Made by a program: the position numbers and the translations under genes. From positions 1 to 64,000 of the IMG/VR virus record IMGVR_UViG_3300027969_000001: 64,000 bases of DNA. One strand, 5' to 3'. Positions 42,561 through 63,689 of this stretch are shown in pieces (the stretch's first letter is position 1; every line of letters begins with the position of its first letter). The DNA is from a virus. Under the pieces are notes generated by a model. It worked only from the letters and a program-made list of their open reading frames with translations. It did not search any database and was not told where the DNA came from.

Positions 42561-42705
42561 CGATAGCGAGCGATTGACTTATCTATCACTGTACGGCTCT
42601 GTGTGAGCGTCACGGTAACGAGTTGAGTGAGAATGAGTAGTAGTGACAGAGCGAGCGTGTACGGCTCTGTGAGTAGCGCAAGAATGAATAGCAGAATCTC
42701 CATGA

Positions 42706-42909
42706 CTACTGTCTATCAGCAAGTTCAGCAAGAACGGACATAATGTTATTGCCTTCATTCCACATCAGATTATCGTAGTCCTCGTACGCTTTCTGTGGCG
42801 TGTATGTGCCTGCGATTATCTCGTCTTGTATTGCAGAGTAGTATCTAATTGCGCTCGTAAGACTCGCCTGCAAGTCTGTTAGTAATTCTGATTCAGATGG
42901 CTCGGTCAT
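42706..42909 (-). CDS. Hypothetical protein
   Basis: AAGGA RBS, 67 aa. Confidence 0.55.
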   Translation of the reverse strand: MTEPSESELLTDLQASLTSAIRYYSAIQDEIIAGTYTPQKAYEDYDNLMWNEGNNIMSVLAELADRQ

Positions 42910-43097
42910 AAAAAATCCTTTTTTTGATTAGTAATAGATAAGTGTCAGATGTGGTACATGAATAGATAAGTGAAACGCCAATGTCTCTCGGCAATGTGTA
43001 GTACCCACCAAAGGAGAAACACGATTACCGAGAGACACTAGCACCAGTGCCTCTGTTGGGAACAACCAAGAAACCAACAGAGGCAGGGACTTATCTA

Positions 43098-44645
43098 TTA
43101 CTGAATGTTCACGCCCATGTGCTGACGATAAGTGTGAACGAACATTGACGGATACACGCTCTTTGGCTTTATGCCTTTGTTCATGTTGGACAGTTGCTCA
43201 ATCGCTTCCTCAATGTGTGGCACAACAATGTAGTTGTGTTTCATTGCGTAAGTTAGGCACTGCATAGCGAGCAGGTCTGTGTAACCATCACCTTCGCCAC
43301 ACACTCCACCGTCTGTAATCCAAACGAGAGGAGTGTTGCGATACTGGCGATTCTCTACGCCCCACACGATTGCAGGATAATCAACACCGTTTCCGTGTCC
43401 GTAAGGAATGTTCTCCAATGTCTCAATCATTCGTCCCTTATCAGCGATAATCCACATGTTCGCACCGTTCTTTTTGTGACGGTCTGAATAGATTGCCACC
43501 GTTGCGCCTTTTGCCAAATCTGTAATCTGCCAAATCTGCTCTTTGGTGAATGACATAGAACCACTTGCGTCAATGATGACCATGCCACCACTGCCACGAA
43601 CGGTCTTGTCAAATACTCGCTTTGCAGGGTCAGTCATGTAACGGTGCATACGGCGTGGTCTGCGCCCCATGTTCGTAGCAACACGCTTCTTGCCGATTGT
43701 GCCAGCGTGTAAGCGTGGCATAGGAACACGCTCAATGCGTAGTTCTGCCCACTTGCCAGTGCCACTGTGTGATGTTGGGGTAATGCTCTGATGAGGAATA
43801 CCTTTCTTGTCACCTTCCTCTGAATCGCCTTCGTTGGAATGGACTGCCGTAGCAGGGTCTTTCTCGCCTTCTTCGCCTTCGCCTGACTTATCTATTCCCT
43901 TTGCACCTGCACCAGCCTTGCCTTCTTTCTCACGCTCTTTTGGTGGTGGGAATGAAGCGAGCCTGTCCACCCATTCTGCGATTCTTTCTGTGTGAACGAA
44001 TCCGTATGGCGCAATGCCGTGATGTTCTGTTGTGTTGGCGAGAGAGCGTGTCTTGTGCGCTTTCTTCATCTCACGGACTGCTCGCTTGCTGATGTCAAGC
44101 AGAGCGTCACCCCATGCACGATTGTGCCTGCGAATACCGTTCAGGAATTGCTTGTGTCCAGCAGTGCCAGCAGTTGCGATTGCACCTGTTACTGCACCAG
44201 CCCAATCTCCAGTTTTCGCTAGGCGTTCTCCGTCATTGAGTTCTCCACCGTCAGCGAGATTCTTCTTCACATCAAATCCTGCCTCTTGGCAAAGAATGTT
44301 TATGCGTAATTCCTCTACAACGGTCAGTGCAGTAGCAGAAGCCATTTCACGAGCAACCCACATCTCAAATTGTTCAGAGTTTGGTGAAACTTTTGAGTGC
44401 ATGAGTTCATGCCCACGAATACAGCGAGCGAGTTCGTCCGTCTGTGACGGTGTGAACATTGTGCGAGTATTCAGGTCAGTGCTTGGCTCGCCTCTGACTG
44501 CTTGACATTCTTCTACTGTCCATCGTCCATGCGCTAAGTCTTTGCGCCCGATGAAGTTTGGCTCGGCTTTCGCCGTTCCCCCTGACTTATCTATTGACGA
44601 GGGGAACGGCTTACCAACGCTCTTTCGTGCTGGCTTGATACTCAT
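43098..44645 (-). CDS. VWA (MIDAS) domain protein, partner of AAA+ ATPase
   Basis: IDASGSM and WITDG MIDAS motifs; HELMH motif; acidic/Gly linker. Confidence 0.8.
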   Translation of the reverse strand: MSIKPARKSVGKPFPSSIDKSGGTAKAEPNFIGRKDLAHGRWTVEECQAVRGEPSTDLNTRTMFTPSQTDELARCIRGHELMHSKVSPNSEQFEMWVAREMASATALTVVEELRINILCQEAGFDVKKNLADGGELNDGERLAKTGDWAGAVTGAIATAGTAGHKQFLNGIRRHNRAWGDALLDISKRAVREMKKAHKTRSLANTTEHHGIAPYGFVHTERIAEWVDRLASFPPPKEREKEGKAGAGAKGIDKSGEGEEGEKDPATAVHSNEGDSEEGDKKGIPHQSITPTSHSGTGKWAELRIERVPMPRLHAGTIGKKRVATNMGRRPRRMHRYMTDPAKRVFDKTVRGSGGMVIIDASGSMSFTKEQIWQITDLAKGATVAIYSDRHKKNGANMWIIADKGRMIETLENIPYGHGNGVDYPAIVWGVENRQYRNTPLVWITDGGVCGEGDGYTDLLAMQCLTYAMKHNYIVVPHIEEAIEQLSNMNKGIKPKSVYPSMFVHTYRQHMGVNIQ

Positions 44646-44647
44646 GG

Positions 44648-45373
44648 TTAGACCACCGAATCAACTGCGATAGCGTCAAGAATCTGCTTTGCTCGCTTGC
44701 CGAATGTGAGTTGGCATGCTCGTTCCATGCCTACGCTCTTACGCAACTTGTCAAGAGCCATAAATGCTCGCAACGAGATACGGTCATCGCCAGCGTCAGC
44801 CATACGGATTGCGTATCCACGCAAATCCTTTGACAATGCGAGCAGAGCGTGTGGGTGTGGTTCGTTGATACGAATACGGATTGGGAAACGGTCAGCGAGT
44901 GCTGTTGGCAATTCGCCCATGTTCTCAATGTTCGTGGTCATAATTGCAGAGAAGCCTTCTTTGGGTCGGACTACCGAGCCAGTTTCAGGATGCTCAAATG
45001 AAGCAGATTCAGGTGAATCAAGCATGGCGAGAAGTGTTGCGAACACATCGCCACCAGCCTTGTCAATTTCGTCCACGATAAGTCGTGCGCCAACTGTGCC
45101 GTTGCCGTTCCATGCTTTGAGGGCAGAACCGTCAAGCCATTGGAAGCCACCGTTATTACTTGGCATGAAGCCACCAGTTACATCCATGTTTGTCATGTCC
45201 TCTGTGCAAACAAGACGGTATGCGCCTGCTTCCACATTGCCCATTGTCATACCTGCGTAGGTCTTGCCGATTCCAGCAGGTCCAAACAGGATTACTCGGT
45301 CAATGCCTGCATTGAGAGCGTCATTGAGGTCAGTCCAGCACTGAGGCAGGCTTTCCGTTGTTGTTGATTCCAT
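44648..45373 (-). CDS. MoxR/CbbQ/CobS-like AAA+ ATPase
   Basis: GPAGIGKT Walker A, IVDEIDK Walker B, ALADRF arginine finger. Confidence 0.9.
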   Translation of the reverse strand: MESTTTESLPQCWTDLNDALNAGIDRVILFGPAGIGKTYAGMTMGNVEAGAYRLVCTEDMTNMDVTGGFMPSNNGGFQWLDGSALKAWNGNGTVGARLIVDEIDKAGGDVFATLLAMLDSPESASFEHPETGSVVRPKEGFSAIMTTNIENMGELPTALADRFPIRIRINEPHPHALLALSKDLRGYAIRMADAGDDRISLRAFMALDKLRKSVGMERACQLTFGKRAKQILDAIAVDSVV

Positions 45374-45408
45374 CTCTATTCTCCTTGTTGTTGGTGAGTG
45401 GTGAACAC

Positions 45409-45435
45409 ACCATACCAGCGTAGGTACAGACCTAC
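45409..45435 (-). promoter_or_regulatory. Motif B promoter
   Basis: GTAGGTCTGTACCT-N7-TATGGT. Confidence 0.75.
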
Positions 45436-45547
45436 AAACCTGACTTATCTATTCAGTAGAGACTTATCTATTCAGTATCAGAAGCGCACCACTTATCTAT
45501 TCACTCTCCACTTGTGGGCAAGCGAGCGAGCGAGTGCGCCAGCGCAA

Positions 45548-45628
45548 ACTTTTTTATCTCTACCCCCATGCTCGCCACACGCCCTTCTGCGTTGGAGCCC
45601 CGATGTTGCCGAGCAGTGCCGGGGCTCC
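45548..45628. repeat. Element C1 (left arm + core, 17-nt spacer)
   Basis: GGAGCCCCG 45594, CGGGGCTCC 45620. Confidence 0.85.
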
Positions 45629-45662
45629 TATGGGAAAGGGGACTTATCTATTACAGATAGTT

Positions 45663-46145
45663 TTATTTTTCTCGTTTGGGAACCATAAGAACTTCCCATA
45701 GTCCATTTTTGATTTTGCGAAATAATGGAGATTCTTTGAGGTAGGTCAAAGTTGTCTGGTAAGAGAATCCTGATTGTTCTGTGAGTTGGTCAGATGTAAA
45801 TTGCTCTGCCTGATGTTCGCTTGACCACTGCTCAAATGCTGACCACTTATCTTTGCGCTTCTCTGTGCGTTCTACTTCTACCTGTGCGTCAGATAGTCCG
45901 ATGAATGTTGATAGAAGGTACTTTGATACTTCTGCCTGCACCGAGTATGTACTTAGGTACGATTGTGGTACACGCTGTCCACCTTCTCGTTGCCAAATCT
46001 GCAATACATAAAGTCCTCTGTTTATTTCAGAAACATAAGAAACTTCCGAGAACGGAACTGCTGTTGCGTTTTTGTATTTTTTGAGAAGCACTGCCCAATG
46101 TTCTTTGTGTACTTCTTTGATTAGGTCATCTGTAATAGTTTGCAT
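45663..46145 (-). CDS. Hypothetical protein (possible C-terminal wHTH)
   Basis: 160 aa, AAGGA RBS. Confidence 0.55.
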   Translation of the reverse strand: MQTITDDLIKEVHKEHWAVLLKKYKNATAVPFSEVSYVSEINRGLYVLQIWQREGGQRVPQSYLSTYSVQAEVSKYLLSTFIGLSDAQVEVERTEKRKDKWSAFEQWSSEHQAEQFTSDQLTEQSGFSYQTTLTYLKESPLFRKIKNGLWEVLMVPKREK

Positions 46146-46225
46146 TTTTTCCTTTTTTTTGCAGTTTCTACCGTTTAGTTTTTTTCTAAAAAATCGTTTT
46201 TTTGATAGATAAGTAAGTTGGGCTG

Positions 46226-46435
46226 TTAGTCAATAACAACCCAACTGTCCTCTCCCTTGATTAGTCCGAGACTAGACCCACTATCCCACTGCACAAACAT
46301 TGTTCCTAGTGAATCAAAGTCGGTAATGACCCCTTCATCTCCTTTGGATAGTTTGGTGTGAATGTCAGATGTGTAAATCAGCCTGATTCTCCTGCCAATA
46401 AGTGCTTCTAGTCCTGCTGACAACTTATCTATCAT
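46226..46435 (-). CDS. DUF4314-like small protein
   Basis: G.RIRL..TSD.HT.L..GDEG.I...D..G...VQWDSGSSLGLI.GED. Confidence 0.65.
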   Translation of the reverse strand: MIDKLSAGLEALIGRRIRLIYTSDIHTKLSKGDEGVITDFDSLGTMFVQWDSGSSLGLIKGEDSWVVID

Positions 46436-46586
46436 GCTGGCTCTTTCTCTTGTAACGCGATGATTCGCATGTCTAATAGAAAATCTGTCATTTCTAATGA
46501 CGAAACAATGTCTCTGCCTGAACAGTGGGAGATTGCTTTGTCAATCAACAAGACGATTGGTGACTTATCTATTACAGATTCTTCAC

Positions 46587-46826
46587 TCATTCTGCGTACC
46601 CGTAAATAACCATGTCAAGTTCGTTGCCTTCTTCATCGGTGTACTTCTTCTTTCCCTCTCCTGCACAGTCGTCAAAGTATTCATCGGCTTCCAACATAAT
46701 CATTTCCATGATGTCATCAAAGTCGGGCTTCTCATCGTTGTCCTCTCTGAATCGCTTTGCCGTTTCTGCCACATCAAATGTGACAGTATTGGTGCGAGTT
46801 ACTGTGATTGTTTTTGGCTCAGACAC
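46587..46826 (-). CDS. Hypothetical acidic protein
   Basis: GTG start lies within motif A. Confidence 0.55.
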   Translation of the reverse strand: MSEPKTITVTRTNTVTFDVAETAKRFREDNDEKPDFDDIMEMIMLEADEYFDDCAGEGKKKYTDEEGNELDMVIYGYAE

Positions 46827-46830
46827 TTAT

Positions 46831-47499
46831 CTATTCCTCATCTTTCTTTTTCTTAGCGTTACCAAGTAGGTCGTGGTAACGGTGAGCAACTACGGCGAGT
46901 TTCATGTAGGCAGTGGTAGCACCCATAGCCTCAACCATGCGTCCGTACTCCTGACCTTCTTTTACTTCGCTTACATCTGCCATGTAATCTTCTTCCGAAT
47001 ACACAGGAACTCCAAAGTCATCGTAGCGATACATTTGAGTAGCACTACCAATCAACGAACCATCCCAGTCCATGCCAGTAACAACGATTGCTTCACGGAC
47101 TTCTGAAAAAGGATTCTCTGAAAAGTCTTTCTGCATTTCGCCACGCTCAAAGTCAATTTCTTCTGATGTGTCTGCACTACGGCAGAAACCCTCTACACAG
47201 AGAAAGAGGAAAGAGAACTCACGGATAGGCATAGCCTTGACTACATCTTCGTACGCCTCTAATACATCTTCACGGTGAATGAGTGGAATCATTGCAATCT
47301 TGTATGGAGAAGATAATTCGTTTTCTTCCTGATACTCAACTGCATCTTCGTCATCGCTCTTGTAAGCAACGAGCATGAGTGGGGGAGTGTCTGTCATCCC
47401 CTCGTCTTTGCACATTTGCTCTTTGGCGTACTTAGTACGGTCAAGAACATCCAGCATTATTTTTGACATTTCTTCTGAAATGGTTTCGTTGATAGCCAT
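46831..47499 (-). CDS. Hypothetical protein
   Basis: Start moved to MAINE (AAGGAG RBS), downstream of promoter B. Confidence 0.65.
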   Translation of the reverse strand: MAINETISEEMSKIMLDVLDRTKYAKEQMCKDEGMTDTPPLMLVAYKSDDEDAVEYQEENELSSPYKIAMIPLIHREDVLEAYEDVVKAMPIREFSFLFLCVEGFCRSADTSEEIDFERGEMQKDFSENPFSEVREAIVVTGMDWDGSLIGSATQMYRYDDFGVPVYSEEDYMADVSEVKEGQEYGRMVEAMGATTAYMKLAVVAHRYHDLLGNAKKKKDEE

Positions 47500-47530
47500 T
47501 GGCTTTCTCCTTGTTGGTAGGTGTGCAGTC

Positions 47531-47557
47531 ATCGTACCAGTACAGGTACAGAACTAC
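47531..47557 (-). promoter_or_regulatory. Motif B promoter
   Basis: GTAGTTCTGTACCT-N7-TACGAT. Confidence 0.75.
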
Positions 47558-47559
47558 AA

Positions 47560-47766
47560 CTATCCAAGCAACCCCTGAATGGGGAGACTTAGTGCGTCAC
47601 TTAGCGAGACAAGAGTGTCCACGCTCGGCGAATAATGTTGGTTCTCAATACGGTTCACCGTTTTTCGTTCCAGCCCTGCTCGCTTTGCTAGTTCCTCTTG
47701 TGACCAGCCTCTTTCTTTTCTTTCAGTTTTTAGCCGTGTGGCAATTACTTCTGTTGCGTTTCCCAT
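47560..47766 (-). CDS. XRE-family HTH regulator
   Basis: LKTERKERGWSQEELAKRAGLERKTVNRIEN..YSPSVDTL. Confidence 0.9.
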   Translation of the reverse strand: MGNATEVIATRLKTERKERGWSQEELAKRAGLERKTVNRIENQHYSPSVDTLVSLSDALSLPIQGLLG

Positions 47767-47800
47767 GTTGTTTCCTCTCTTGGGGACTTATCTATTTAGT

Positions 47801-48457
47801 TCAGAATGACGGAATGAAACTCTGAAACACCTTTCTCCTTTTATTTCCCCTTCTCCATGCCACATACTCCCTGATAGTGGCATCCAAATCTATGTCATGC
47901 TGGTCAGTGATGAGATTGCGCCATTCACTTTGTGCTTCGTAGAACTCGTCATACAACTCGTCAAGCCCTGATTCTGACGCTTTTTCGTACATCTGTATCA
48001 GTTCAGGTGGTTGCGTCATGTCACACATGTCCTCTGCAATCTTTTCGCCGTCACAGTAAAGTTCCCAACCAGCGTAGAAATCTGCTTCTTCTGTGCAACT
48101 GTACCCAAATACCAATTTAGGGAACTGCTTGCTGATGTTCTCAATCAACTTGTCACATGGACTCCATGCGCTCGTGTAGCGCAGATGTAGTGGGTACGAA
48201 TCTTTATCGTCAATCTCTATGTCACAAGCACCCCACTTGCTTCCCCACACGCCAAGTGCGCCACCAAAGAAAGAATCAAGTTTGTCCACCCATTCACTCT
48301 CGTCAGGGATAGGTACTAGATGGTTCATGTCATAGTGAGCGTTTATCTTGCGCCCTAGTTCATCATAATCTTCGGGCATTGAGATTGCTTTGAGAAACTT
48401 ACGAGTTTCTGTTTTGTTCCCTGCAACAACAAGGTTTGAGAAGCACCAGTTTGGCAT
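47801..48457 (-). CDS. MPNWC-type (Api92/DUF1281-like ferredoxin-fold) protein
   Basis: MPNWC start, WGSKW, YTSAWSP, QFPKL.F motifs. Confidence 0.7.
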   Translation of the reverse strand: MPNWCFSNLVVAGNKTETRKFLKAISMPEDYDELGRKINAHYDMNHLVPIPDESEWVDKLDSFFGGALGVWGSKWGACDIEIDDKDSYPLHLRYTSAWSPCDKLIENISKQFPKLVFGYSCTEEADFYAGWELYCDGEKIAEDMCDMTQPPELIQMYEKASESGLDELYDEFYEAQSEWRNLITDQHDIDLDATIREYVAWRRGNKRRKVFQSFIPSF

Positions 48458-48491
48458 GGTAGTCCTTTCGGGTTAGTGGTGGTATGCAATG

Positions 48492-48518
48492 AGCGTACCA
48501 GCACAGGTTCAGAACTAC
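48492..48518 (-). promoter_or_regulatory. Motif B promoter
   Basis: GTAGTTCTGAACCT-N7-TACGCT. Confidence 0.7.
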
Positions 48519-48601
48519 TCGGGGGGACTTATCTATTACTCATCCACCACCGTCATTGACTAACGAGCAAAAGTTTTCTATCTCATCCCCCAAGATTTTT
48601 G

Positions 48602-48693
48602 ACTTTTCTATCTCTACCCCCCATGCGCCGATTTTTTCTCTTTTTCGCCGTGTTCCGAAGGAGCCCCGACCAGTTTGGTTCGCCCCGGGGCTC
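48602..48693. repeat. Element C2 (left arm + core, 17-nt spacer)
   Basis: GAGCCCCG 48661, CGGGGCTC 48686; extra arm near 48572. Confidence 0.85.
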
Positions 48694-48715
48694 TTTTGGG
48701 AAAAGGACTTATCTA

Positions 48716-49039
48716 TTACATAGGGAGAGTTACGAGTTGTGCCGAGTGGATGTACCAGCCGTAAGCGTGACGGTGTGTCATGTAGTGCAGTAGTTCCTTG
48801 ACATCGGTAAGGTGCGTGAACACATCTTCCAACGGAACGCCGTGGCTATCAAAGAATCCACGCTCGGGCTTGGGTGAGAACGAGATGTACATGTTCTCGT
48901 ATCCCTCATAAGAGCCATAAGACCTCTGTGGCTTTATCTGGCACTGCGCTCCAATAAACTTTTTTTTTGTCATCATCAGAAAGAGAGTCTTTATCAAAGA
49001 CCAAATGTGGGCGAATGACTTATCTATTACCATTCTCAT
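48716..49039 (-). CDS. Hypothetical protein
   Basis: Start moved to MRMVIDKS (ATGA overlap). Confidence 0.5.
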   Translation of the reverse strand: MRMVIDKSFAHIWSLIKTLFLMMTKKKFIGAQCQIKPQRSYGSYEGYENMYISFSPKPERGFFDSHGVPLEDVFTHLTDVKELLHYMTHRHAYGWYIHSAQLVTLPM

Positions 49040-49281
49040 GCCCTTCGCCAAACGCTGAACTGTTCGGTCAGGTCGGTACCAATCAGGGCAATAGTCAATC
49101 GTGCAATGGATTCCAGCAGTTCTTTTTCGGTAATGCCCCATTCCTCGTTAGCCCACGGGAACATCATTCCGTTCTCGTAGTCACACCAAATGTTCGCCAT
49201 TGCGCCAGCACGACTAACGCCAATGCTGTAATAGTTTTCCCATAGGATTTCATCAACTGCGTATTTGCTAGTTTTCGTCAT
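49036..49281 (-). CDS. Hypothetical protein
   Basis: Coupled ORF. Confidence 0.55.
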   Translation of the reverse strand: MTKTSKYAVDEILWENYYSIGVSRAGAMANIWCDYENGMMFPWANEEWGITEKELLESIARLTIALIGTDLTEQFSVWRRA

Positions 49282-49483
49282 TTTGTACTTCCTCTGCTAC
49301 GTGCGATGAAATCGTGTCTGCAATTTTTGAGAAATCTACACCAAACGATGCTTTCCATCTGTCCAGTACAACTTCCATCGCAAGGTTCGCAACTTCTTCC
49401 GTAGAAAGATTTGCCGAGTCAATGCTCAGCACTTCCCTTACTGTTGCTGGTCCAACTATTGCTGTTACTTCGTAAAGAGCCAC
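49268..49483 (-). CDS. Hypothetical protein
   Basis: GTG start lies within motif A. Confidence 0.55.
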   Translation of the reverse strand: MALYEVTAIVGPATVREVLSIDSANLSTEEVANLAMEVVLDRWKASFGVDFSKIADTISSHVAEEVQNDEN

Positions 49484-49487
49484 TTAT

Positions 49488-56400: not shown

Positions 56401-56528
56401 TAGGGGACTTATCTATTCAGTATCGGCTCGCAGTATCCACTCGGATACGCTCGCAGTTGGCTCGCATACTTCGCTCGGACTTATCTATTCAGTAATCACC
56501 CACGCCTCGCACCTACCAGCACCAGCAC

Positions 56529-56612: not shown

Positions 56613-56681
56613 CATCGGGCGCAAGGTCAAGCCTTGACCTACCCGTGAGAGTAAGTCAAGGCGAGACTATCTAGCACTTAT

Positions 56682-57116: not shown

Positions 57117-57148
57117 GGTTACCCCTTCATGGTTGTTTGACTACTCGC

Positions 57149-57175
57149 ATAGTACCATCGTAGGTACGGAACTAC
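57149..57175 (-). promoter_or_regulatory. Motif B promoter (leftward at divergence point)
   Basis: GTAGTTCCGTACCT-N7-TACTAT. Confidence 0.75.
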
Positions 57176-57237
57176 TGTGGGACTTATCTATTACCGATAC
57201 GCTCACGCCTCGCCACTCGGCAACCCCCGATAGTTGG

Positions 57238-57374
57238 GCTTATCTATCTCAACCCCCGTCACAGCCTCGGAGTCTCTCGGACTCTTACGGTTGGAGCCCC
57301 GTTCGCGCTCGGTTCCCTCGGGGCTCCCATCGGGAAGGGCGCTTCCCTACTCTTGGGGGTCGTGATAAAAAAGT
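57238..57374. repeat. Element C9 (both arms, 17-nt spacer)
   Basis: Core 57293-57327. Confidence 0.85.
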
Positions 57375-57419
57375 TTCATCTAATCGGTCAGGGTCTTTCT
57401 TTCATAGATAAGTCTCGGT

Positions 57420-57446
57420 GGAGGTTTGTACCTCACCATGTACTCT
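57420..57446 (+). promoter_or_regulatory. Motif B promoter (rightward at divergence point)
   Basis: GGAGGTTTGTACCT-N7-TACTCT. Confidence 0.7.
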
Positions 57447-57487
57447 GTGTCCAGTTGGGGGATGGTCTCCCAGCAGGAAGGGATGCC

Positions 57488-58009
57488 ATGTTCGGTGTTG
57501 TTCAGCAGTTGGAGGACGAAGAGGTGCAGGCTCGCACTGTGCTTTTCGTTTACGAAGTCAAAGAGGAAGGCGATGCACTCGCTGTGGTTGGAACATTCCA
57601 CCCCAACTTCTTTGACCAAGACATTGTCAATCTCATCAAGGAAGAGCGCCAGTGCTCTTACAACCAAGCAGAGGACGACGAGCAGGGTTCAGCGATGGAA
57701 GCCTGTGGTTGCATTTGGTGCCTCACCGAAGGCACGGGCTATCTCAATTGGGGAAGCAACGGATGGGATGACATTCCGAGAGGGTTCGCATTTGTGCAGT
57801 TTCCAAAAAGCGCTGCAATCGCCGAAGGCTCGCTCATTCTTGTTGAAGGCAAGTGGCTCTCCGAGGACATCCACGGCGTTTCGGAAACCAAGTCCGTTAT
57901 CAACTACGAGACCACAATGGTGGAGACCTCGCATGGCACCTACCCCGAAGCCGAGTGCCTTGCAGTTGAGCATTGGGAGTTGCTACCAGCACTCCCAGCC
58001 AATCGGTAA
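57488..58009 (+). CDS. Hypothetical protein
   Basis: Start moved to MFGVV (GAAGGGA RBS); stop overlaps motif A. Confidence 0.6.
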   Translation: MFGVVQQLEDEEVQARTVLFVYEVKEEGDALAVVGTFHPNFFDQDIVNLIKEERQCSYNQAEDDEQGSAMEACGCIWCLTEGTGYLNWGSNGWDDIPRGFAFVQFPKSAAIAEGSLILVEGKWLSEDIHGVSETKSVINYETTMVETSHGTYPEAECLAVEHWELLPALPANR

Positions 58010-58069
58010 TAGATAAGTCATCAACCACTCTGAGTGAAAGAAGAACTCGCTCAGAGTGATGACCAAGGA

Positions 58070-58146
58070 AGCCCCGGCTCGCTCGTTCCCAACGGGGCTC
58101 CCTTGCGCTTCGCTTGCTTCGGTGGTGGGGGTCGTGATAAAAAAGT
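58070..58146. repeat. Element C10 (core + right arm, 16-nt spacer)
   Basis: Core 58070-58100. Confidence 0.85.
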
Positions 58147-58202
58147 CTGCTCCTCGTTGCGAGGGAGAAGCTCGGGTTATCTGTAATAGATAAGTACCCC
58201 TA

Positions 58203-58229
58203 GCAGTTCTGTACCTATTGGGTTACTAT
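58203..58229 (+). promoter_or_regulatory. Motif B promoter
   Basis: GCAGTTCTGTACCT-N7-TACTAT. Confidence 0.7.
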
Positions 58230-58267
58230 TGAGTGACCACATAACACTTTCCTGAAGGGGGAACTAA

Positions 58268-58681
58268 ATGTCAAAAATAGATTATGACGGAATACAACTT
58301 TCGTACGAGGCTCAAGTTATTGAGTCAGATAAAAAGTTGCTTGATGCTTTACTTGATGCCGTGAAAGATGAAGAACTTGCACCTTTCACATTCCACATGG
58401 AGTGGGTCATCTGTGATTACTGCCGTGGCAACGGTGGACACTCTCGCCGTTTCGGTGCAATGAGTTCAGAAGAGTTTGCAGAGTGGAGCGATGAGTCTCG
58501 TGAAGCGTACTTGCGTGGTGCTTACGATGACCGTTGTGAAGCGTGTGATGGAAGTGGAAAGGTCTATGAGATGAACGAAGGCGCATTGCCTGAAGAAGTT
58601 ATTGAGTTCATTGACAACTACCGTCAGTACGCATTTGATAGCGCATCTGAAAGTCGTGCTGAACGAATGGCAGGTTGCTGA
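58268..58681 (+). CDS. Protein with DnaJ-type CxxCxGxG Zn finger
   Basis: CDYCRGNG and CEACDGSG. Confidence 0.7.
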   Translation: MSKIDYDGIQLSYEAQVIESDKKLLDALLDAVKDEELAPFTFHMEWVICDYCRGNGGHSRRFGAMSSEEFAEWSDESREAYLRGAYDDRCEACDGSGKVYEMNEGALPEEVIEFIDNYRQYAFDSASESRAERMAGC

Positions 58682-58920
58682 TGTTTACTTACCGTGTAAC
58701 TGTTCAGGTCACGCTTGATGTTGAGGCAGAAGATGACGATGGAGCAATGGCAGTAGCAATGCAGAATGTCAGTGCTCGCATAGGCGATGACCGTACAACA
58801 CCTCTCCACGAAAGAACTGATGCAATGTGGGTGACAGGCATTGCTGAAAGAGATTACGAATACTTTTGTTACAAGCAACCATTCCCACTATGGGTAATAG
58901 ATAAGTCAGAGGACTACTAA
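58681..58920 (+). CDS. Hypothetical protein
   Basis: Coupled ORF; ends VIDKSEDY (motif A in frame). Confidence 0.55.
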   Translation: MFTYRVTVQVTLDVEAEDDDGAMAVAMQNVSARIGDDRTTPLHERTDAMWVTGIAERDYEYFCYKQPFPLWVIDKSEDY

Positions 58921-58922
58921 TC

Positions 58923-59213
58923 ATGAATAACAAAAGCGATAGTTATTACACACTTAGGTCTGTCATTCGTTTTATCTTTTGGGGAACGATACTCGCAGTA
59001 ATCATGTGGATTGTTACAACATCTATTGCAGTTTTTGCATCTGATGAAACACCCGATTGTGATGTGACATTAGAGCGTGACTTCACATGGAACGCTCGTG
59101 AGTTCGCAGTGCTCAATCCAACCAAGACGCTTGCAGATTGCCGTCATTACCAAAGCGTTGTTCTCAATGAGAACGGCACATGGGAATGGTACGACCCATA
59201 CATGGACTCATAG
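58923..59213 (+). CDS. Membrane-anchored hypothetical protein
   Basis: N-terminal TM; GAGGA RBS. Confidence 0.55.
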   Translation: MNNKSDSYYTLRSVIRFIFWGTILAVIMWIVTTSIAVFASDETPDCDVTLERDFTWNAREFAVLNPTKTLADCRHYQSVVLNENGTWEWYDPYMDS

Positions 59214-59314
59214 AAAGGATTGATTATGGTTTTTTTATTTGTTATTGCAGTAACGCTTGCAGTTCTAATAGCAATAGTTCGTGACGATAGATGGTGGTGA
59301 ACACTTATCTATTA

Positions 59315-59626
59315 CTAATCAAACGAACGAGACACTGGTAAGTCGCATTGCAAACAATCGTAATGTGCAAGTGTCTTTTTTGTTTTTCTCTTGACGATGT
59401 ACGCAGATGAAAGATGACCACCACCTTCGTACTCACTCAACAATGCTTGATGCGTTTTTATCTCTTCGCTGTTGAGACCTAAGTCCTCGGCGCAGTACGC
59501 ACAGATGTAGCCATCGGCAATCTCGTCATAGATGACAGATGTAGTCATGTCATCTTGCTCGTACTCATCAGAGAACTGGTTGGTGCTAGTTGCAAAGTAC
59601 GGTTGGAGTGCTTTTGTTTTTTTCAT
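59315..59626 (-). CDS. Zn-binding hypothetical protein, inverted relative to neighbours
   Basis: CAYC and CLQC; GAGGA RBS; flanking motif A copies also inverted. Confidence 0.6.
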   Translation of the reverse strand: MKKTKALQPYFATSTNQFSDEYEQDDMTTSVIYDEIADGYICAYCAEDLGLNSEEIKTHQALLSEYEGGGHLSSAYIVKRKTKKTLAHYDCLQCDLPVSRSFD

Positions 59627-59878
59627 TTTTTCCTCTCACCTCTTATGAGGTTGCTTGTGTTTTACAATCGGACATTTTTTCTTACATCTTTTACAAGAGT
59701 CCTTGCATCTCTTTATGTCAAAAGTTTTTGTCCGTTACCTATTAGACGTGTCATCGTCTCCGTTTCTGAAAACGATGCTCGCAGTTGATAGAAGCGTCAT
59801 CTTGATACGAAAACGAAACGACTTATCTATTCAGTAATAGAAAGCAGGCTTCGCTCGGAGAAAGTAAGCGAGTCAGCA

Positions 59879-60015
59879 ACTTTTCTATCTCTACCCCCGT
59901 TGCAAGGCAGTTATGCCAGCGCATGGGAGCCCCGATGCTGTTCGCTCCTAACGGGGCTTCTACCTCGCGCGCGTGACGCCGAGAGCAGCAAGCTTGGGGG
60001 GTCGCGATAAATAAG
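59879..60015. repeat. Element C11 (both arms, 17-nt spacer)
   Basis: Core 59926-59958. Confidence 0.85.
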
Positions 60016-60148
60016 CAAGATTTCAGCTGGGAGCTGGGAGCTGGGAGCTGGCGAAATAAGGGATAGATAAGTGGTTTAAATCTTTTACAAAACTGACCGA
60101 TTGCAAAACGCAACTCCTTGCAAATAAAGGGTTTGCGGTCGTAAAAAT

Positions 60149-60175
60149 GTAGGTTTGTACCTACTTTTGTATAAT
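60149..60175 (+). promoter_or_regulatory. Motif B promoter with consensus -10
   Basis: GTAGGTTTGTACCT-N7-TATAAT. Confidence 0.8.
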
Positions 60176-60219
60176 CCGCGCACGCCCACAACCACCACAA
60201 CAACCCACAAGGAGCCCAC

Positions 60220-60321
60220 ATGAAGCCACACGATAAGAACAGCCGCCCACCTACCTCATTCGTAGGCGGCGCAGGTCATTGGAATAAGCGCGGCAAATCA
60301 AAGCCAAAAGATAAAAAGTAA
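60220..60321 (+). CDS. Basic 33-aa peptide (not in ORF track)
   Basis: AAGGAG RBS; MKPHDKNSRPPTSFVGGAGHWNKRGKSKPKDKK. Confidence 0.5.
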   Translation: MKPHDKNSRPPTSFVGGAGHWNKRGKSKPKDKK

Positions 60322-60348
60322 TTCGGACAAAGGAAGGAACCACACCCG

Positions 60349-60957
60349 ATGAACACACACCCACACCACGCAGCAGTAGTAGACGCAATCAAGGCGCTAC
60401 CTGCTTACACAGACCCGCAGACATTCTTTGAGTCAGAACTAGCCGAGTGCTACTCAGACGAGGAGCTTGTAGAAACATTCGGCTGGGACGGAGACAAGGC
60501 GCTCACAATCAAGCAGGCGCTCAAAGCAGTCAAGGAGCTTTGCGAGCTTCGTCAAGATGTTTACGGCTGGATTATTGAGGAAGGCGACCGAGAGCGCGAA
60601 GCAGAGCAAGAGGCGTACAAGCGCTGGCGCGAAGAACAAGAGGCAGCTAGCCGTTGTGGTTGGCTCGTAGAGCGCTCATGGGAAGCAGCTTTCCCATTCG
60701 TGCCGAACCCCGAATACACAGATGAGGAGAACGCCGAACACAGGCAGTGGCACGGTGAAAGCCTCGGTGAACGAGCAGCAGAGTCAGGCAACCGCTACGC
60801 AATCGTTGATTGTGGTGCGAAGCTCGCAGATGTCATTCGCAACGGCGTGCGAGTTGGTTGGGAGTGCGAAGCAGGTCACCGTTCCATCAGCATGGAACAC
60901 ATGACGCAAGAGGAGCAGGACGAGCAATACCGCTTGGATTACGAGGACAGCTACTAG
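60349..60957 (+). CDS. Hypothetical acidic protein
   Basis: 202 aa ORF. Confidence 0.65.
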   Translation: MNTHPHHAAVVDAIKALPAYTDPQTFFESELAECYSDEELVETFGWDGDKALTIKQALKAVKELCELRQDVYGWIIEEGDREREAEQEAYKRWREEQEAASRCGWLVERSWEAAFPFVPNPEYTDEENAEHRQWHGESLGERAAESGNRYAIVDCGAKLADVIRNGVRVGWECEAGHRSISMEHMTQEEQDEQYRLDYEDSY

Positions 60958-61036
60958 CCACCTCTTGGAATAGATAAGTTCTCCCCACGCCCCCACCCCC
61001 CCTTCCATCAGGGGCGTGGGGTTTATCGCAGGGACA

Positions 61037-61068
61037 AGCCCCGTTCGGGTTCGTTTCCGTCGGGGCTC
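61037..61068. repeat. Element C12 (core only, 17-nt spacer)
   Basis: AGCCCCG 61037, CGGGGCTC 61061. Confidence 0.8.
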
Positions 61069-61090
61069 TCATCGTTAGCGCGAAATGTCC

Positions 61091-61117
61091 GTAGGTCTGT
61101 ACCTCCCCGGGTACTCT
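61091..61117 (+). promoter_or_regulatory. Motif B promoter
   Basis: GTAGGTCTGTACCT-N7-TACTCT. Confidence 0.75.
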
Positions 61118-61123
61118 GTGGCC

Positions 61124-61453
61124 ATGACAAAAAAACACTTCACCGATTACACCAAAGCCGAAGCATGGGCCGAGAAAAACAACCTCGCCCTAGAACCCAT
61201 CGGAACCTGCTGGGAGGAGCACACAGTGGCCTCATGGAAGAGCGATACCACCCGTATCGAAATATGGATTCAGGAGATGGAATACGCAGCAGAGCACGAG
61301 CGTGGCGGATACATCCCTTGCCTTGTGGATTGCCCTGTAGTCCTCGTGTGGGACGGCCTAGAGGCCAATGCGCCCTACACGCTCCACCCTGACTTCTGCA
61401 CGCTCACAGAGGCTCGCAAGGGCTTCGATGAGTTGGTCAGGCAAGCGAGTTAG
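61124..61453 (+). CDS. Hypothetical protein, probably leaderless
   Basis: ATG follows the -10 hexamer after 6 nt; no RBS. Confidence 0.6.
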   Translation: MTKKHFTDYTKAEAWAEKNNLALEPIGTCWEEHTVASWKSDTTRIEIWIQEMEYAAEHERGGYIPCLVDCPVVLVWDGLEANAPYTLHPDFCTLTEARKGFDELVRQAS

Positions 61454-61571
61454 ACACCCGGTGAACTTTTTCTCCCCGGCACGAAATTCCCTGCCGGGGA
61501 GAAATTCCGGCGGGTTTTTTCTTCACCGGAATTTCTTGCCGGAATCGGAAAGATTTTGCGCTAATGGTAGA

Positions 61572-61670
61572 AGCCCCGTTCTCGTTCGTTCTCTATTGTT
61601 TCGAACGGGGCTCTCATCGGCTCGGGTGTTCGGCGCGAACAACACGCGATGGGGGTTGTGATAGATAAGT
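61572..61670. repeat. Element C13 (core + right arm, 27-nt spacer)
   Basis: Core 61572-61613. Confidence 0.85.
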
Positions 61671-61697
61671 GTAGGTCTGTACCTGACCAGGTACGAT
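61671..61697 (+). promoter_or_regulatory. Motif B promoter
   Basis: GTAGGTCTGTACCT-N7-TACGAT. Confidence 0.75.
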
Positions 61698-61737
61698 GCT
61701 TGTACGGCGGGAAGTACCCGCCCATGAAGGGAAAGTC

Positions 61738-62019
61738 ATGAAGCAAGTAACAATCACATGGAAAGCGTTCGGCGAACCAACATCGGCTGCACTCGCGCTT
61801 GACACGAGCGCAAGCGCGTTGGAGATATGCGATGCAATATTCCACCAAACGAATGTTTACGCTGGTCCGATATGGGACGAACTGGAACCGCTCCTGCCAG
61901 CCACACGCACACACACTGCGCTTTCAGTTGGAGACGAAGTCACAGTTGATGGCGAAGTGATTCGGTGCGAGCCAATGGGTTGGGCTACCAGGTTCATCGC
62001 TGACGCTCTTACTGAATAG
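61738..62019 (+). CDS. Hypothetical protein
   Basis: Start moved to MKQVT; ALSVGDEVTVDG..CEPMGW motif. Confidence 0.6.
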   Translation: MKQVTITWKAFGEPTSAALALDTSASALEICDAIFHQTNVYAGPIWDELEPLLPATRTHTALSVGDEVTVDGEVIRCEPMGWATRFIADALTE

Positions 62020-62040
62020 ATAAGTCCCCCCAGCGGAGAA

Positions 62041-62067
62041 CCCCACCTCACTCGGGTGGGGTTCTTC
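62041..62067 (+). terminator. Possible intrinsic terminator
   Basis: CCCCACC-TCACTCG-GGTGGGG then TTCTT. Confidence 0.45.
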
Positions 62068-62080
62068 CCGTTCTCAAGAC

Positions 62081-62158
62081 AGCCCCGTGGCTGTTCGGCA
62101 CGAACGGGGCTCTCATCGGCGAGCGAGCGAGAATGATTGGGGGTCGCGATAGAAAAGT
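62081..62158. repeat. Element C14 (core + right arm, 17-nt spacer)
   Basis: Core 62081-62112. Confidence 0.85.
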
Positions 62159-62175
62159 TTCCAAAAGAAAAGGTT

Positions 62176-62202
62176 GCAATCCTGTACCTGCTGTGGTACG
62201 AT
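62176..62202 (+). promoter_or_regulatory. Motif B promoter (degenerate)
   Basis: GCAATCCTGTACCT-N7-TACGAT. Confidence 0.6.
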
Positions 62203-62231
62203 TTCATCAGACCAGTAGAAGGGGTTGACCA

Positions 62232-62531
62232 ATGAGGAAAGAGACACGCTCTCTCAAAAAGAAAGCCGAAGGCCTAGGCATTTCGGTAGATGAATTAGTT
62301 GAGGAAATGGAAGTCGGGAATCCCGACAAATCGTTCGTCATAACTGTGGCCTTTGACCGATACAAAGATTTGCGTTCGTTCGCAGACGAAATCGCTCAGA
62401 GAATGGGTCTCGCAATTTATCAGGCCGATTCACTTGACCACGAATACAACGGCAGTGTGCGAGACGGAATGTTCGTCCTGCGAGACCCGAACGGTTTCCA
62501 CGGCAAACCAGACCATTGGAGGGTTGACTAG
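62232..62531 (+). CDS. Hypothetical protein
   Basis: GAAGGGG RBS. Confidence 0.6.
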   Translation: MRKETRSLKKKAEGLGISVDELVEEMEVGNPDKSFVITVAFDRYKDLRSFADEIAQRMGLAIYQADSLDHEYNGSVRDGMFVLRDPNGFHGKPDHWRVD

Positions 62532-62552
62532 TGGTGATAGATAAGTCCCCTT

Positions 62553-62579
62553 GTAGTTCTGTACCTTATGTAGTACGCT
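62553..62579 (+). promoter_or_regulatory. Motif B promoter
   Basis: GTAGTTCTGTACCT-N7-TACGCT. Confidence 0.75.
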
Positions 62580-62605
62580 CTGTTCAGACCACGGAAGGGG
62601 TTTCC

Positions 62606-62908
62606 ATGATAACAACGGAAAAATTCGAGATGCTCAAAGAGCAACTGGAAGCATCAACAGACCAGATGAAGAAAATGGTAGAGGCGCTAAGAACGCCAAC
62701 ACCATGCGATTGCTGCTTCTCAGACGAGGAGAACGCTGAGAATTATCGCGATTTTGAGAACGCAGTTCGCGACCTCTCTAACGAATGTCAAGAGATTGCG
62801 ATGAAGGCCTACGATTGCTACATGGCCATCACCCGCGCTCCACTGGAAATTGCGCTCGCACAACTGGATGCGATGCAAGAGGGCTACCGCCTCCTCGCCG
62901 AACAATAG
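62606..62908 (+). CDS. Hypothetical helical protein
   Basis: Start moved to MITTE (GAAGGGG RBS). Confidence 0.6.
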   Translation: MITTEKFEMLKEQLEASTDQMKKMVEALRTPTPCDCCFSDEENAENYRDFENAVRDLSNECQEIAMKAYDCYMAITRAPLEIALAQLDAMQEGYRLLAEQ

Positions 62909-63005
62909 GTAATAGATAAGTCCCCCGAGCACCCCCCGCTCGGGGGATTTTCTTTGCCCGTGACCCAGCCCGTACTTGTAATAGATAAGTCCCCTGTTGT
63001 GATGA

Positions 63006-63094
63006 AGCCCCGTCTTCGGCGGAGTCCGTTCGTCTCCGACGGGGCTCTCATCGGCGAGCGAGCGAGAGTGCATTGGGGGTCGTGATAAAAAAGT
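63006..63094. repeat. Element C15 (core + right arm, 27-nt spacer)
   Basis: Core 63006-63047. Confidence 0.85.
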
Positions 63095-63121
63095 GTAGGT
63101 CTGTACCTAGTGCAGTACAGT
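63095..63121 (+). promoter_or_regulatory. Motif B promoter
   Basis: GTAGGTCTGTACCT-N7-TACAGT. Confidence 0.75.
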
Positions 63122-63149
63122 GTGGTCATACCAACGGAAGGGGTACGAG

Positions 63150-63656
63150 ATGCCAAAGACGGCTCTACAAGTAAAGACCACAGGTGAAGTAGTAATGCTT
63201 GACCTAGAGGGTGACGAACTAGCAACACTGCAGAGTGCAGTGGGCGGATACATTGAAGCAATAAACTTCACCAACTCGCTGACTATGTGGTGCAACGAAG
63301 AAGGCAAACTAGACGGTCTCTCGCAGAACATCATTGCTCAACACTTCTATGACAATGCATACGGTGCAGGGCGTGACATTATCGTGGGTGATGTTGTATT
63401 CACTGGCGGTGCTGATGATGAAGGTGACACAATGGGTCTCCGTGAAGAATTGGTCAAAGACATTCACGAAGTAGCCGAGCGTCTTGCTCGCTCCGCAGTG
63501 TTCATCACCAAGGCAGAGACGAAGAAGGTCATGAGCTGGCAAGACCATCTCGGTGACGCTCCTATGACAGAGGAGAATGTGTGGCAGGCAATTGCTGATG
63601 CGAATGACCTTGACTACGACGAAATTGCTGACGGCGATTTATTTGAGTGGCTCTAG
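63150..63656 (+). CDS. DUF3846-like protein
   Basis: LQSAVGGYIEAI, WCNEEGKLDGL..N..A, IVGDVVFTG. Confidence 0.75.
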   Translation: MPKTALQVKTTGEVVMLDLEGDELATLQSAVGGYIEAINFTNSLTMWCNEEGKLDGLSQNIIAQHFYDNAYGAGRDIIVGDVVFTGGADDEGDTMGLREELVKDIHEVAERLARSAVFITKAETKKVMSWQDHLGDAPMTEENVWQAIADANDLDYDEIADGDLFEWL

Positions 63657-63689
63657 CGCTCAATTATTGGTAATAGATAAGTGCCAATT

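Follow-up and report, generated by a model that had tools for sequence, protein, structure and literature searches.

Why would a phage repeat one short, asymmetric DNA word throughout a single array of small genes, keep it on the sense strand, and write it even into the codons of its proteins? We address this question for a 64,000-nucleotide stretch of viral DNA (the window), the opening 64 kb of a virus record that is complete at 158,714 bp and carries terminal repeats (IMG/VR record IMGVR_UViG_3300027969_000001, here G000). The word, motif A, occupies an array of small accessory and early genes on both strands (40575-64000, continuing beyond the window to ~72.3 kb; ~30 kb in all). Our leading answer, which we put forward tentatively and with slightly less than even confidence, is by analogy: motif A would represent operator- or stoperator-like sites of a phage factor that silences or insulates the early-gene array, because its layout matches the repressor-stoperator logic of Cluster A mycobacteriophages. 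For comparison, five related genomes of 145-158 kb were read complete; the relatives cited below are G001, G002, G005, G006 and G007. Gene calls are our own, and the counts of junctions, orientations and placements rest on them. Site coordinates are those of the 11-mer core, which is exact unless one mismatch is stated.

The abundance of the motif lies far outside expectation. Exact copies of AATAGATAAGT(C/G) number 47 in the window, compared with 0.01 expected from dinucleotide shuffles, and for the exact 12-mer AATAGATAAGTS the count is 47 in the window and 49 over the genome as a whole. With up to one mismatch, the window holds 58 12-mers (0.8 in shuffles), close to the ~59 polar 12-mers reported by an earlier reading made from the sequence alone; extended genome-wide, the count of the 11-mer core at the same tolerance gives 70 sites, 66 of which lie within 40.5-72.3 kb. 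The commonest 9- to 12-mers of the genome all derive from motif A, and its logo spans ~13-14 positions, (G/T)(T/G)AATAGATAAGT(C/G). As had been noticed before, the sense strand contains stops in two frames (TAA and TAG), so that I-D-K is its sole open frame; all three antisense frames are open. Two sites lie to the left of the array, one at a convergent junction (7599-7609, +) and one at the stop of gene 35083-35718 (35714-35724, +).

The orientation of the motif follows the genes. Transcription diverges at ~57.3 kb, running leftward through the left arm of the array and rightward through the right arm. Of the 42 sites between 40.5 and 57.3 kb, 33 point left, and of the 14 farther right, 12 point right, in good agreement with the ~35 of 44 and 12 of 14 counted in the sequence-only reading. 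The two right-arm exceptions are also the same (59302 and 59820; cores 59303-59313 and 59821-59831, both -), and they flank the inverted gene or genes at 59315-60221. Relative to the local gene direction, 47 sites of G000 are co-oriented, 11 are anti-oriented and 7 are ambiguous, so the bias persists on a full count. Across six genomes that are complete or nearly so, 75-85% of the sites that can be classified run in the direction of the local gene, and among sites that touch coding sequence the ratio is 76 to 8, a sense bias that holds although the antisense strand offers three open frames and the sense strand only one. The co-orientation and the coding-sequence bias together indicate that the function of motif A is strand-specific and tied to the direction of transcription.

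Polarity of this kind could also come from a signal linked to replication or translocation (similar to Chi, KOPS, Ter or DnaA boxes), and the earlier reading had named a translocation signal. The switch in orientation at 57.3 kb coincides with the turn of the cumulative GC skew, a DnaD-like gene lies nearby, and the reverse complement of A matches TTATCCACA at 6-7 of 9 positions. However, orientation tracks genes rather than genome arms, flipping even with the inverted one, and the motif is limited to one array. The sites fall at junctions and on promoters, the lineage-variable positions (see below) include ones that the site of a host protein would keep, and the sequence differs between phages at 80% identity. 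Such a signal is therefore barely credible. DnaA boxes in particular were rejected, as no more than 6-7 of 9 positions match and the wrong positions are variable.

Where, then, are the sites placed? Most are intergenic or touch a gene end, and 26 of the 33 gene junctions in the array contain at least one (76-90% in three relatives). One placement is a few bases past a stop codon, often directly before a GC-rich hairpin. Thus 45642-45652 (-) lies 10 nt past the stop of 45663-46145 and is followed by a GGAGCCCCG hairpin; hairpins also follow 48707-48717 (-), at a gene stop, and 50529-50539 (-); 59303-59313 lies 1 nt past the stop of the inverted gene 59315-59626; 60969-60979 (+, exact as an 11-mer) lies 11 nt past the stop of 60349-60957; and 62911-62921 (+), 2 nt past a stop, has a 3' C-run that opens a GC hairpin. 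Elsewhere motif A itself supplies the stop (TAG or TAA): at 35714, at 43089-43099 (-; TAA of a VWA-like gene), at 56676-56686 (-; gene 56682-57116), at 58008-58018 (+; gene 57488-58009), at 59821 (TAA of the inverted open reading frame 59823-60221) and at 62015-62025 (+; gene 61738-62019). At 46825-46835 (-) and 49482-49492 (-), it forms the whole junction GAGG-AA-TAG-ATAA-GTG; the first of these joins the TAG stop of 46831-47499 to the GTG start of 46587-46826, with GAGG before it, and the second likewise provides a TAG stop and a GTG start. Some sites occupy spacers between Shine-Dalgarno sequence and start codon, and 47786-47796 (-) lies in the 34-nt spacer before a Cro-like HTH_3 gene.

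At other junctions the motif enters codons 2-7 of the translationally coupled next gene (M-x-I-D-K-S). These sites, all on the minus strand, are 46423-46433 (one mismatch; codons 2-4 of a DUF4314 gene, M-I-D-K-L), 49018-49028 (codons 3-6, M-V-I-D-K-S), 50897-50907 (codons 3-6, M-S-I-D-K-S-P-T), 54377-54387 (exact as an 11-mer; codons 3-6, M-V-I-D-K-Y, if the ATG at 54391-54393 is used) and 55832-55842 (one mismatch; codons 4-7, M-T-D-I-D-K-S). A further site, 52281-52291 (-), directly follows a terminator-like hairpin, and additional copies are found at 42577-42587 (-, one mismatch, GATAGATAAGT), 46563-46573 (-), 53062-53072 (-, exact as an 11-mer), 53944-53954 (-), 56479-56489 (-), 60062-60072 (+, one mismatch) and 62980-62990 (+).

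This placement would also suit a signal read in the sense RNA: a phage endoribonuclease or an RNA-binding protein would recognise motif A and, at every cistron boundary, process or silence the polycistronic early transcripts. The 76:8 sense bias in coding sequence and the sites at cistron junctions and in Shine-Dalgarno-to-start spacers would suit such a role, as would the strong hairpin that follows 23% of A sites (7% of control positions) and the inverted pairs, which would sequester the site. On the other hand, sense transcription is unlikely to reach the sites upstream of the divergent first promoters or those between terminators and promoters; the G006 motif lies over the -35 of promoters; and no nuclease candidate was found. 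These three kinds of placement favour action as DNA rather than RNA, and an RNA signal appears quite unlikely to us.

The distribution over junctions also recalls a recombination joint for the exchange of gene cassettes, a role already proposed for the PeSL cassettes of T4-type phages. There is one site per junction, the supplied stops and starts would keep cassettes framed, and the content of the array differs between relatives. Between G001 and G005, 17-24% of BLAST block ends fall within 6 nt of an A site, compared with 5% by chance (p = 0.004 to 0.0001), and several 300-nt windows align from the motif onward only. Yet seven other genome pairs show no enrichment of block ends, and neither of two indels between near-identical relatives (0/2) is at an A site. 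The 11-13 bp are too short for homologous exchange, no recombinase was found, and lineage-specific variants would hinder exchange between lineages. A joint would also leave the internal sites of the VWA-like gene and the strict polarity unexplained. We give this explanation a low probability. Integron-like attC sites and other site-specific cassette capture were likewise discarded, as no recombinase was found. One 446-bp insertion distinguishes near-identical relatives (L145:3391-3838, compared with L143 and L148); it is flanked by a 5-bp direct repeat (CCCAT) and adjoins another array element, motif D (see below), not motif A.

The internal sites reveal a second regularity. Spacing is dense and regular, with a largest gap of ~1 kb, and deep internal sites are found almost only in genes of at least 900 nt: shorter genes with a deep internal site number 0/33, 2/29, 1/32 and 1/35 in four genomes, and the 1.5-kb VWA-like gene has two deep sites in each of three genomes. 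In G000 this gene (43098-44645, -; 515 aa; partner of the AAA_5 gene 44648-45373) is both the sole array gene of at least 900 nt and the sole one with deep internal A sites. Since these sites are essentially limited to long genes, placement looks like a spacing rule (about one site per 300-800 bp) and not a marking of boundaries alone. Regular spacing up to ~1 kb would also suit sites at which a coating or clamping protein (for example a ParB/KorB-like module of a packaged giant protein, or a nucleoid-type silencer) loads or nucleates, compacting or protecting the first-expressed region instead of acting as a point roadblock, and the motif class co-segregates with the virion block (see below). 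Symmetric clamps, however, need neither an asymmetric nor a strictly sense-oriented site, and no ParB-type helix-turn-helix (HTH) was matched to the motif, so we consider loading sites improbable.

Evidence for what is under selection comes from the proteins. The tetrapeptide IDKS or IDKL is encoded as ATA GAT AAG T at 40575, 43886, 44585, 46423, 49018, 58896 and 66998, while the remaining IDK tripeptides of the genome mostly use other codons. Within this set, 40575-40585 (-) lies at residue 27 of a DUF1599 gene (IDKS); 43886-43896 (-) lies deep in the VWA-like gene, in an acidic linker (GIDKS); 44585-44595 (-) lies at residue 18 of the same gene (SIDKS; QVDKS in G001, GLDKS in G007); and 58896-58906 (+) encodes IDKS near a C-terminus. 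The earlier observation that unrelated proteins carry IDKS-type peptides is thus borne out, with the qualification that the sites at 50897, 54377 and 55832 lie within the downstream gene, at its codons 2-7, only if the upstream ATG is used. For 50897 this start is supported by the peptide SPT[ED]TYPMR, which relatives keep just downstream of the site.

The comparison between lineages adds new evidence. The same array recurs in at least nine lineages of related ~150-kb actinophages, each with its own variant of the motif, at 70 sites in G000 and 43-96 per genome in the five relatives. The variants are AA-TAGATAAGT (this phage), AA-TAGATAACT, AG-TAGATAAGT, AC-TAGATAAGT, GG-TAGATAAGT, GGGG-TAGATAA(G/C)T, GGTG-TAGGTAAGT, GGGGGATAAGT, AGGATAGTGCA and AAGGATAATGTAA. 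They share an invariant core and differ in a 5' dinucleotide, which within any one genome is as conserved as the core. G001 is ~80% identical to G002 and G005 over the array DNA, and 21 of 34 alignable G001 sites have an orthologous site in the other variant in G002, 35 of 44 in G005. The proteins change accordingly: in four lineages the acidic linker of the VWA-like protein reads G-I-D-K-S, G-V-D-K-S, G-V-G-K-S or S-L-D-K-S, each according to its own motif (codons ATA/GTA/GTA/CTA, then GAT/GAT/GGT/GAT, then AAG TC), and the N-terminus of the 50.9-kb gene is M-S-I-D-K-S-P-T in G000, M-G-V-D-K-S-P-T in G001 and M-E-G-V-G-K-S-P-T in G002. Distant VWA-like homologues from motif-free phages are without either peptide, the opposite of a peptide kept there with synonymous codons. 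Because the linker tracks the motif of its lineage and disappears with it, sequence comparison demonstrates selection on motif A at the level of DNA (or sense RNA), dictating protein sequence, as the sequence-only reading had proposed in calling the signal strong enough to constrain proteins. Core and discriminator are kept in 60-95 copies and rewritten in concert between close relatives, which would seem to need a sequence-specific reader that co-evolves with its sites. Host factors of fixed specificity (sigma-A, DnaA, Lsr2, RNase E) were rejected as the reader, since they do not fit concerted, lineage-specific rewriting.

Motif A is also associated with promoters. The window contains ~19 host-type promoters on both strands (45423-63702; a 20th lies at 71.65 kb), each consisting of box B (GTAGKTYYGTACC), ~7 nt, and an extended -10 (TGnTAYnnT). 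In G000, an A site precedes box B by 0-10 nt at 15 of these 20 promoters. On the minus strand, these sites are 45443-45453 (7 nt upstream, at the promoter of the AAA/VWA operon, with tandem copies at 45462-45472 and 45491-45501), 48527-48537 (8 nt, with motif D just upstream), 49993-50003 (7 nt), 51419-51429 (6 nt), 51955-51965 (9 nt), 52905-52915 (6 nt), 53730-53740 (6 nt, with motif D upstream), 55198-55208 (10 nt), 56407-56417 (6 nt) and 57182-57192 (6 nt; first leftward promoter at the divergence point). On the plus strand, they are 57403-57413 (one mismatch, 6 nt; first rightward promoter), 58185-58195 (exact as an 11-mer, 7 nt), 61660-61670 (one mismatch, abutting box B), 62536-62546 (one mismatch, 6 nt) and 63672-63682 (7 nt). 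An A site of its own lies upstream of each of the two divergent first promoters (57.18 and 57.40 kb; 117.1 and 117.2 kb in G001), three lineages have 3-5 tandem copies at the promoter of the AAA/VWA operon, and some sites lie between a terminator hairpin and the next promoter. The distance from the end of A to the -10 is 27-28 nt in G000, 24 or 31 nt in G001 and 15 nt in G006, where the motif falls on the -35 position of 12 of 19 promoters. This variable distance fits an operator or insulator better than an activator that touches RNA polymerase in a fixed geometry.

Taken as a mechanism, the operator-like reading would run as follows. Motif A would be the asymmetric ~13-bp recognition site of a sequence-specific phage factor; copies at or on the -35 region of ~20 early promoters would control initiation, and sense copies at junctions and inside the one long gene would stop transcription, or insulate against it, across the 30-kb array. 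Reader and sites would diversify together, giving each lineage a private variant in the manner of the Cluster A immunity specificities. We infer both that a protein binds motif A and that its binding blocks transcription.

Several of our results weigh against this reading. About 20% of the sites are anti-oriented, and only about half of this group can be put down to inverted pairs or hairpins. In G000 they include, on the plus strand, 42933-42943 and 42961-42971 (a pair with the -10-like TGGTACAT between its members, the second kept in position in G001 and G002), 46204-46214 (one mismatch), 50582-50592, 52326-52336 (one side of a 13-bp stem with a T run after it), 53110-53120, 53135-53145 (adjoining a bidirectional hairpin), 54019-54029 (one mismatch), 55466-55476 and 55509-55519 (within a GCCCTGAC/GTCAGGGC hairpin). 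Most promoter-proximal sites in G000 lie upstream of the core promoter, not on it. In every lineage, moreover, the 5' half of box B (GGAAGTC or TAGKTC) looks much like the 3' half of A (TAAGTC), a similarity that could instead reflect a role in promoter recognition.

This last point leads to the most serious rival, in which the role of motif A is promoter recognition: it would be a -35-like or upstream module for a phage-directed transcription factor or an injected virion polymerase, and its variants would be promoter specificities. Phages T7, T3 and SP6 differ in promoter specificity in just this way. The high conservation of A, its sense orientation in front of genes, the box B resemblance and the G006 placement on 12 of 19 -35 positions, where TAGATA matches TTGACA at 4 of 6 bases, would all follow, and among G001, G002 and G005 the motif class tracks the virion module, not the array genes. 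Against this stands the fact that ~80% of A sites have no -10-like element downstream. Many precede 3' hairpins, or lie in codons 2-7 or on the start codon of the next gene, so that a transcript would miss the gene, and the spacing from A to the promoter differs by lineage (15, 24, 27-28 and 31 nt). Pfam found no sigma region 2 (PF04542) and no T7-type RNA polymerase (PF00940), although the control for the latter was silent and divergent virion polymerases could still be present. Finally, internal sites confined to long genes fit a density rule better. A promoter element is thus unlikely in our estimate. Two narrower promoter assignments were rejected outright: motif A as a sigma-A -10, because no TANNNT hexamer fits, and motif D as a -35 with A as its -10, because their spacing varies between 15 and 23 nt.

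The second difficulty for the operator-like reading concerns the reader itself, as none was found among the candidates screened. A phmmer search of six-frame open reading frames of at least 50 aa from six genomes gave no match to the repressor gp71 of mycobacteriophage L5 at E ≤ 10, a result that a structural analogue of gp71 could have evaded. Integrase and ParA families (PF00589, PF00239, PF13614) are absent by Pfam from the complete G000 record; with neither a tyrosine or serine integrase nor ParA, a lysogenic state is not evident. Searches of ~60 proteins against Pfam, PHROGs and Protein Data Bank sequences gave no DNA-binding candidate beyond the recognised HTH proteins. One of these is encoded at the array edge (41853-42227, +) and combines an HA domain with a sigma-70 region-4-like HTH, which makes it a candidate regulator. 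Its AlphaFold2 model has two domains on a flexible linker, and a two-domain monomer of this predicted form would suit an asymmetric site; Foldseek gave the model only weak HTH matches. Its recognition helix, however, is invariant in 16 lineages, and alignment column 63 in the HA domain, the sole one consistent with motif class, failed on contig L196, where D occurs with GG (elsewhere D occurs with AC). The other is a 68-aa Cro/C1-type HTH_3 protein encoded inside the array (47560-47766, -), whose recognition helix is invariant in six genomes; this protein more plausibly reads an invariant promoter dyad, GTACC-N6-GGTAC. With both helices invariant, neither protein explains the lineage-specific part of the motif. 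A fast-evolving 94-aa product encoded downstream of the HA-HTH gene was discarded as a two-helix membrane protein, and WhiB was discarded for want of an AT-hook.

Can co-variation with the motif point to the reader? Identity-based screens found no array protein that is closer between genomes of the same motif, and a three-way test of G001, G002 and G005 points only to the whole virion block. G002 is a mosaic in which the array genes are nearest G001 and the virion module (~63-107 kb) is nearest G005 (loci L126-L141 and L170-L177). Motif class places G002 beside G005, and the same grouping is given by the virion module, by a packaged protein of 2943 aa and by a basic protein of 226 aa. Because motif class follows the virion module and not the array genes, the reader may be encoded outside the array, which we offer as a lead and not as a finding.

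This lead allows a different version of silencing, which we consider possible but doubtful. Here motif A would be a barcode unrelated to gp71: a polar 13-bp word every 300-800 bp, recognised by a reader encoded outside the array and possibly packaged in the virion, as the tie between motif class and virion module allows. Silencing or licensing would be under SOS control, and hetero-immunity or competition between phages would rewrite 60-95 sites, codons included, in phages that still share 80% identity. The SOS component has a basis in the array edge. A LexA-type box, CGAAC-N4-GTTCG (41824-41837, +), sits in the promoter of the HA-HTH gene between its -35 and its -10, and the gene itself looks leaderless or very short-leadered. 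The box occurs nowhere else in the genome, and all 16 lineages examined keep it although the flanking sequence diverges. Such a conserved box on the neighbouring regulator gene suggests that the array is switched by the host SOS response, and from this arrangement a switch probably exists despite the missing gp71 and lysogeny genes.

Other elements accompany motif A in the array. The box-B promoters contain the perfect dyad GTACC-N6-GGTAC across spacer and extended -10, with the -10 half invariant in all lineages; copies lie at 47534-47549, 49962-49977, 51389-51404, 52875-52890, 57152-57167, 61099-61114, 61679-61694 and 62184-62199. Motif D, (GTTAG-N5-6)TGACGGTGGTGGA(TGA), is invariant in all lineages at 8-11 copies per genome and occurs here on the minus strand at 38643-38654, 39965-39976, 40658-40669, 42240-42251, 48543-48554, 50363-50374 and 53754-53765. 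Its sense strand reads as a start codon followed by T-V-V-D/E-D/E, either a mini-ORF of 6-9 codons or a true N-terminus, as in the DUF1599 gene (M-L-T-V-V-D-E). Motif D may be a leader-peptide or translation-initiation module, and one of the invariant HTH proteins may target it. Hairpins of the form GGAGCCCCG...CGGGGCTCC, with 17-nt loops and no T run (the style of actinobacterial I-shaped terminators), lie 3' of many genes (45594-45628, 52052-52086, 55295-55329, 57293-57327 and others; 15 arms), and one sits in the divergent region between the two arms. Antisense to the VWA-like gene, 3' of it (42933-42972, +), a -10-like GTGGTACA is followed after ~5 nt by an A site; orthologues occur in G001 at 99961 and in G002 at 9120, in both with a strong hairpin next. 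This arrangement is possibly a small antisense RNA that starts with motif A.

The surroundings of the array indicate the host. Baseplate, collagen-like fibre and tail genes occupy 1-30 kb of the window; a WhiB gene, the DnaD-like gene and further small genes begin at ~36 kb; and SNF2, DUF932 and Rpf-like transglycosylase genes lie to the right of the window. WhiB, the Rpf-type lysin and the TGnTAYnnT extended -10 promoters indicate, from sequence features, an actinobacterial host. Among the collagen-like fibre genes are embedded a tryptophan halogenase (11647-13191, -; E = 5e-102), a 2-oxoglutarate (2OG)-Fe(II) oxygenase (14355-14936, -) and a glycosyltransferase (7616-8581, -), 81-87% identical in relatives, whose products may modify the fibres. 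Genes for a methionine aminopeptidase (M24; 30138-30974, +), which is not in G001 or G002, and a proteasome-subunit-like protein (35083-35718, +) are also present. Megablast and tblastn against GenBank phages gave no match to the array, the HA-HTH protein or the VWA protein, whereas IMG/VR searches with the VWA-like and HA-HTH proteins returned many relatives (~35 related loci), all from uncultured samples. An IMG/VR 14-mer scan for the motif of G000 gave single chance matches only, and the combined A+B pattern was found in no other viral contig. Two family contigs lie in metagenome-assembled genome bins, L195 (RGOY01000019.1) and L196 (JAURLY010000091.1), one bin labelled Actinomycetota and one Gammaproteobacteria; both contigs are short and of phage origin, each has a motif-A variant of its own, and they do not count as evidence of integration.

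How does motif A compare with repeated elements already described? The PeSL of T4-type phages is itself a promoter plus terminator, read by host sigma-70 (PMC2839356, PMC4122927). Those phages likewise have hyperplastic arrays of small open reading frames, each with its own host-type promoter and stem-loop, and repeats at module boundaries. Motif A differs in being a separate 13-bp polar word beside promoter B and the hairpins; it contains no TANNNT -10, varies by lineage, enters coding sequence, and shows weak evidence for recombination. The start-associated and extended start-associated sequences (SAS/ESAS) of Cluster K phages lie a few bases before start codons, include the ribosome-binding site and number 10-19 copies (PMC3203893). 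They resemble motif A as a 13-bp asymmetric actinophage word at gene starts with a second, dyad element alongside, but motif A has no fixed distance to the start, is often 3' of stops, and lies upstream of promoters. The conserved inverted repeats (CIR) of phiC31 are reportedly symmetric 17-bp dyads bound by the c repressor of that temperate phage. They share with motif A the many operators across an actinophage early region, near almost identical early promoters and terminators, and differ in their symmetry, motif A being asymmetric and polar. In Neisseria and Pasteurellaceae, DNA uptake sequences are uptake signals spread over host genomes, which leave recurrent peptides and form terminator hairpins as inverted pairs. 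The likeness is conceptual only, that of a DNA-level word tolerated in particular frames of coding sequence; uptake sequences are neither transcription-polar, confined to an array, nor a phage feature.

The closest parallel, and the one already drawn in the sequence-only reading, is with Cluster A, and polarity and layout support the resemblance. Cluster A stoperators are 13-bp asymmetric sites, more than 20 per genome, oriented with transcription and located in short intergenic spaces and at the early promoter; their motifs track repressor divergence, and the monomeric repressor blocks elongation in one orientation only (PMC9283540, PMC6550527). R4-type Streptomyces phages (R4/phiJoe-type) follow the same logic (PMC10276819). 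Like the sites of L5 (gp71), Bxb1 and TipsytheTRex, motif A is an asymmetric actinophage word of ~13 bp in dozens of transcription-oriented copies, lying in short intergenic spaces, over stops and starts and at early promoters, with a related but distinct motif in each lineage. The differences are also clear. Here searches detected no gp71-family repressor and neither an integrase nor parABS; genome size is threefold greater; motif A is 3-4 times denser (one per 300-400 bp) and confined to a 25-40-kb array instead of being genome-wide; ~20 promoters bear operators instead of one or two; a LexA box lies on the neighbouring regulator gene; and site variants are written into orthologous codons. 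Because no gp71 homologue was detected in six genomes, no recombinase or ParA was found, and the sites are confined to an array at 3-4 times the density, membership in the L5/gp71 repressor family fails.

New in this phage family are the density rule, the lack of a recognisable gp71-type repressor and of lysogeny genes, a conserved LexA-controlled regulator, the breadth of lineage-specific variants with positional orthology, and a discriminator base that is read out in protein. For annotation, motif A marks gene boundaries and true start codons among ORFans. The family also provides a natural experiment in which DNA-binding specificity and dozens of sites would change together, in at least nine variants, and since the discriminator base is legible from the amino acid it imposes (I, V or L), the evolution of immunity or regulatory specificity becomes testable. 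If the operator-like reading is correct, the stoperator principle would extend from 50-kb temperate mycobacteriophages to a family of ~150-kb uncultured actinophages.

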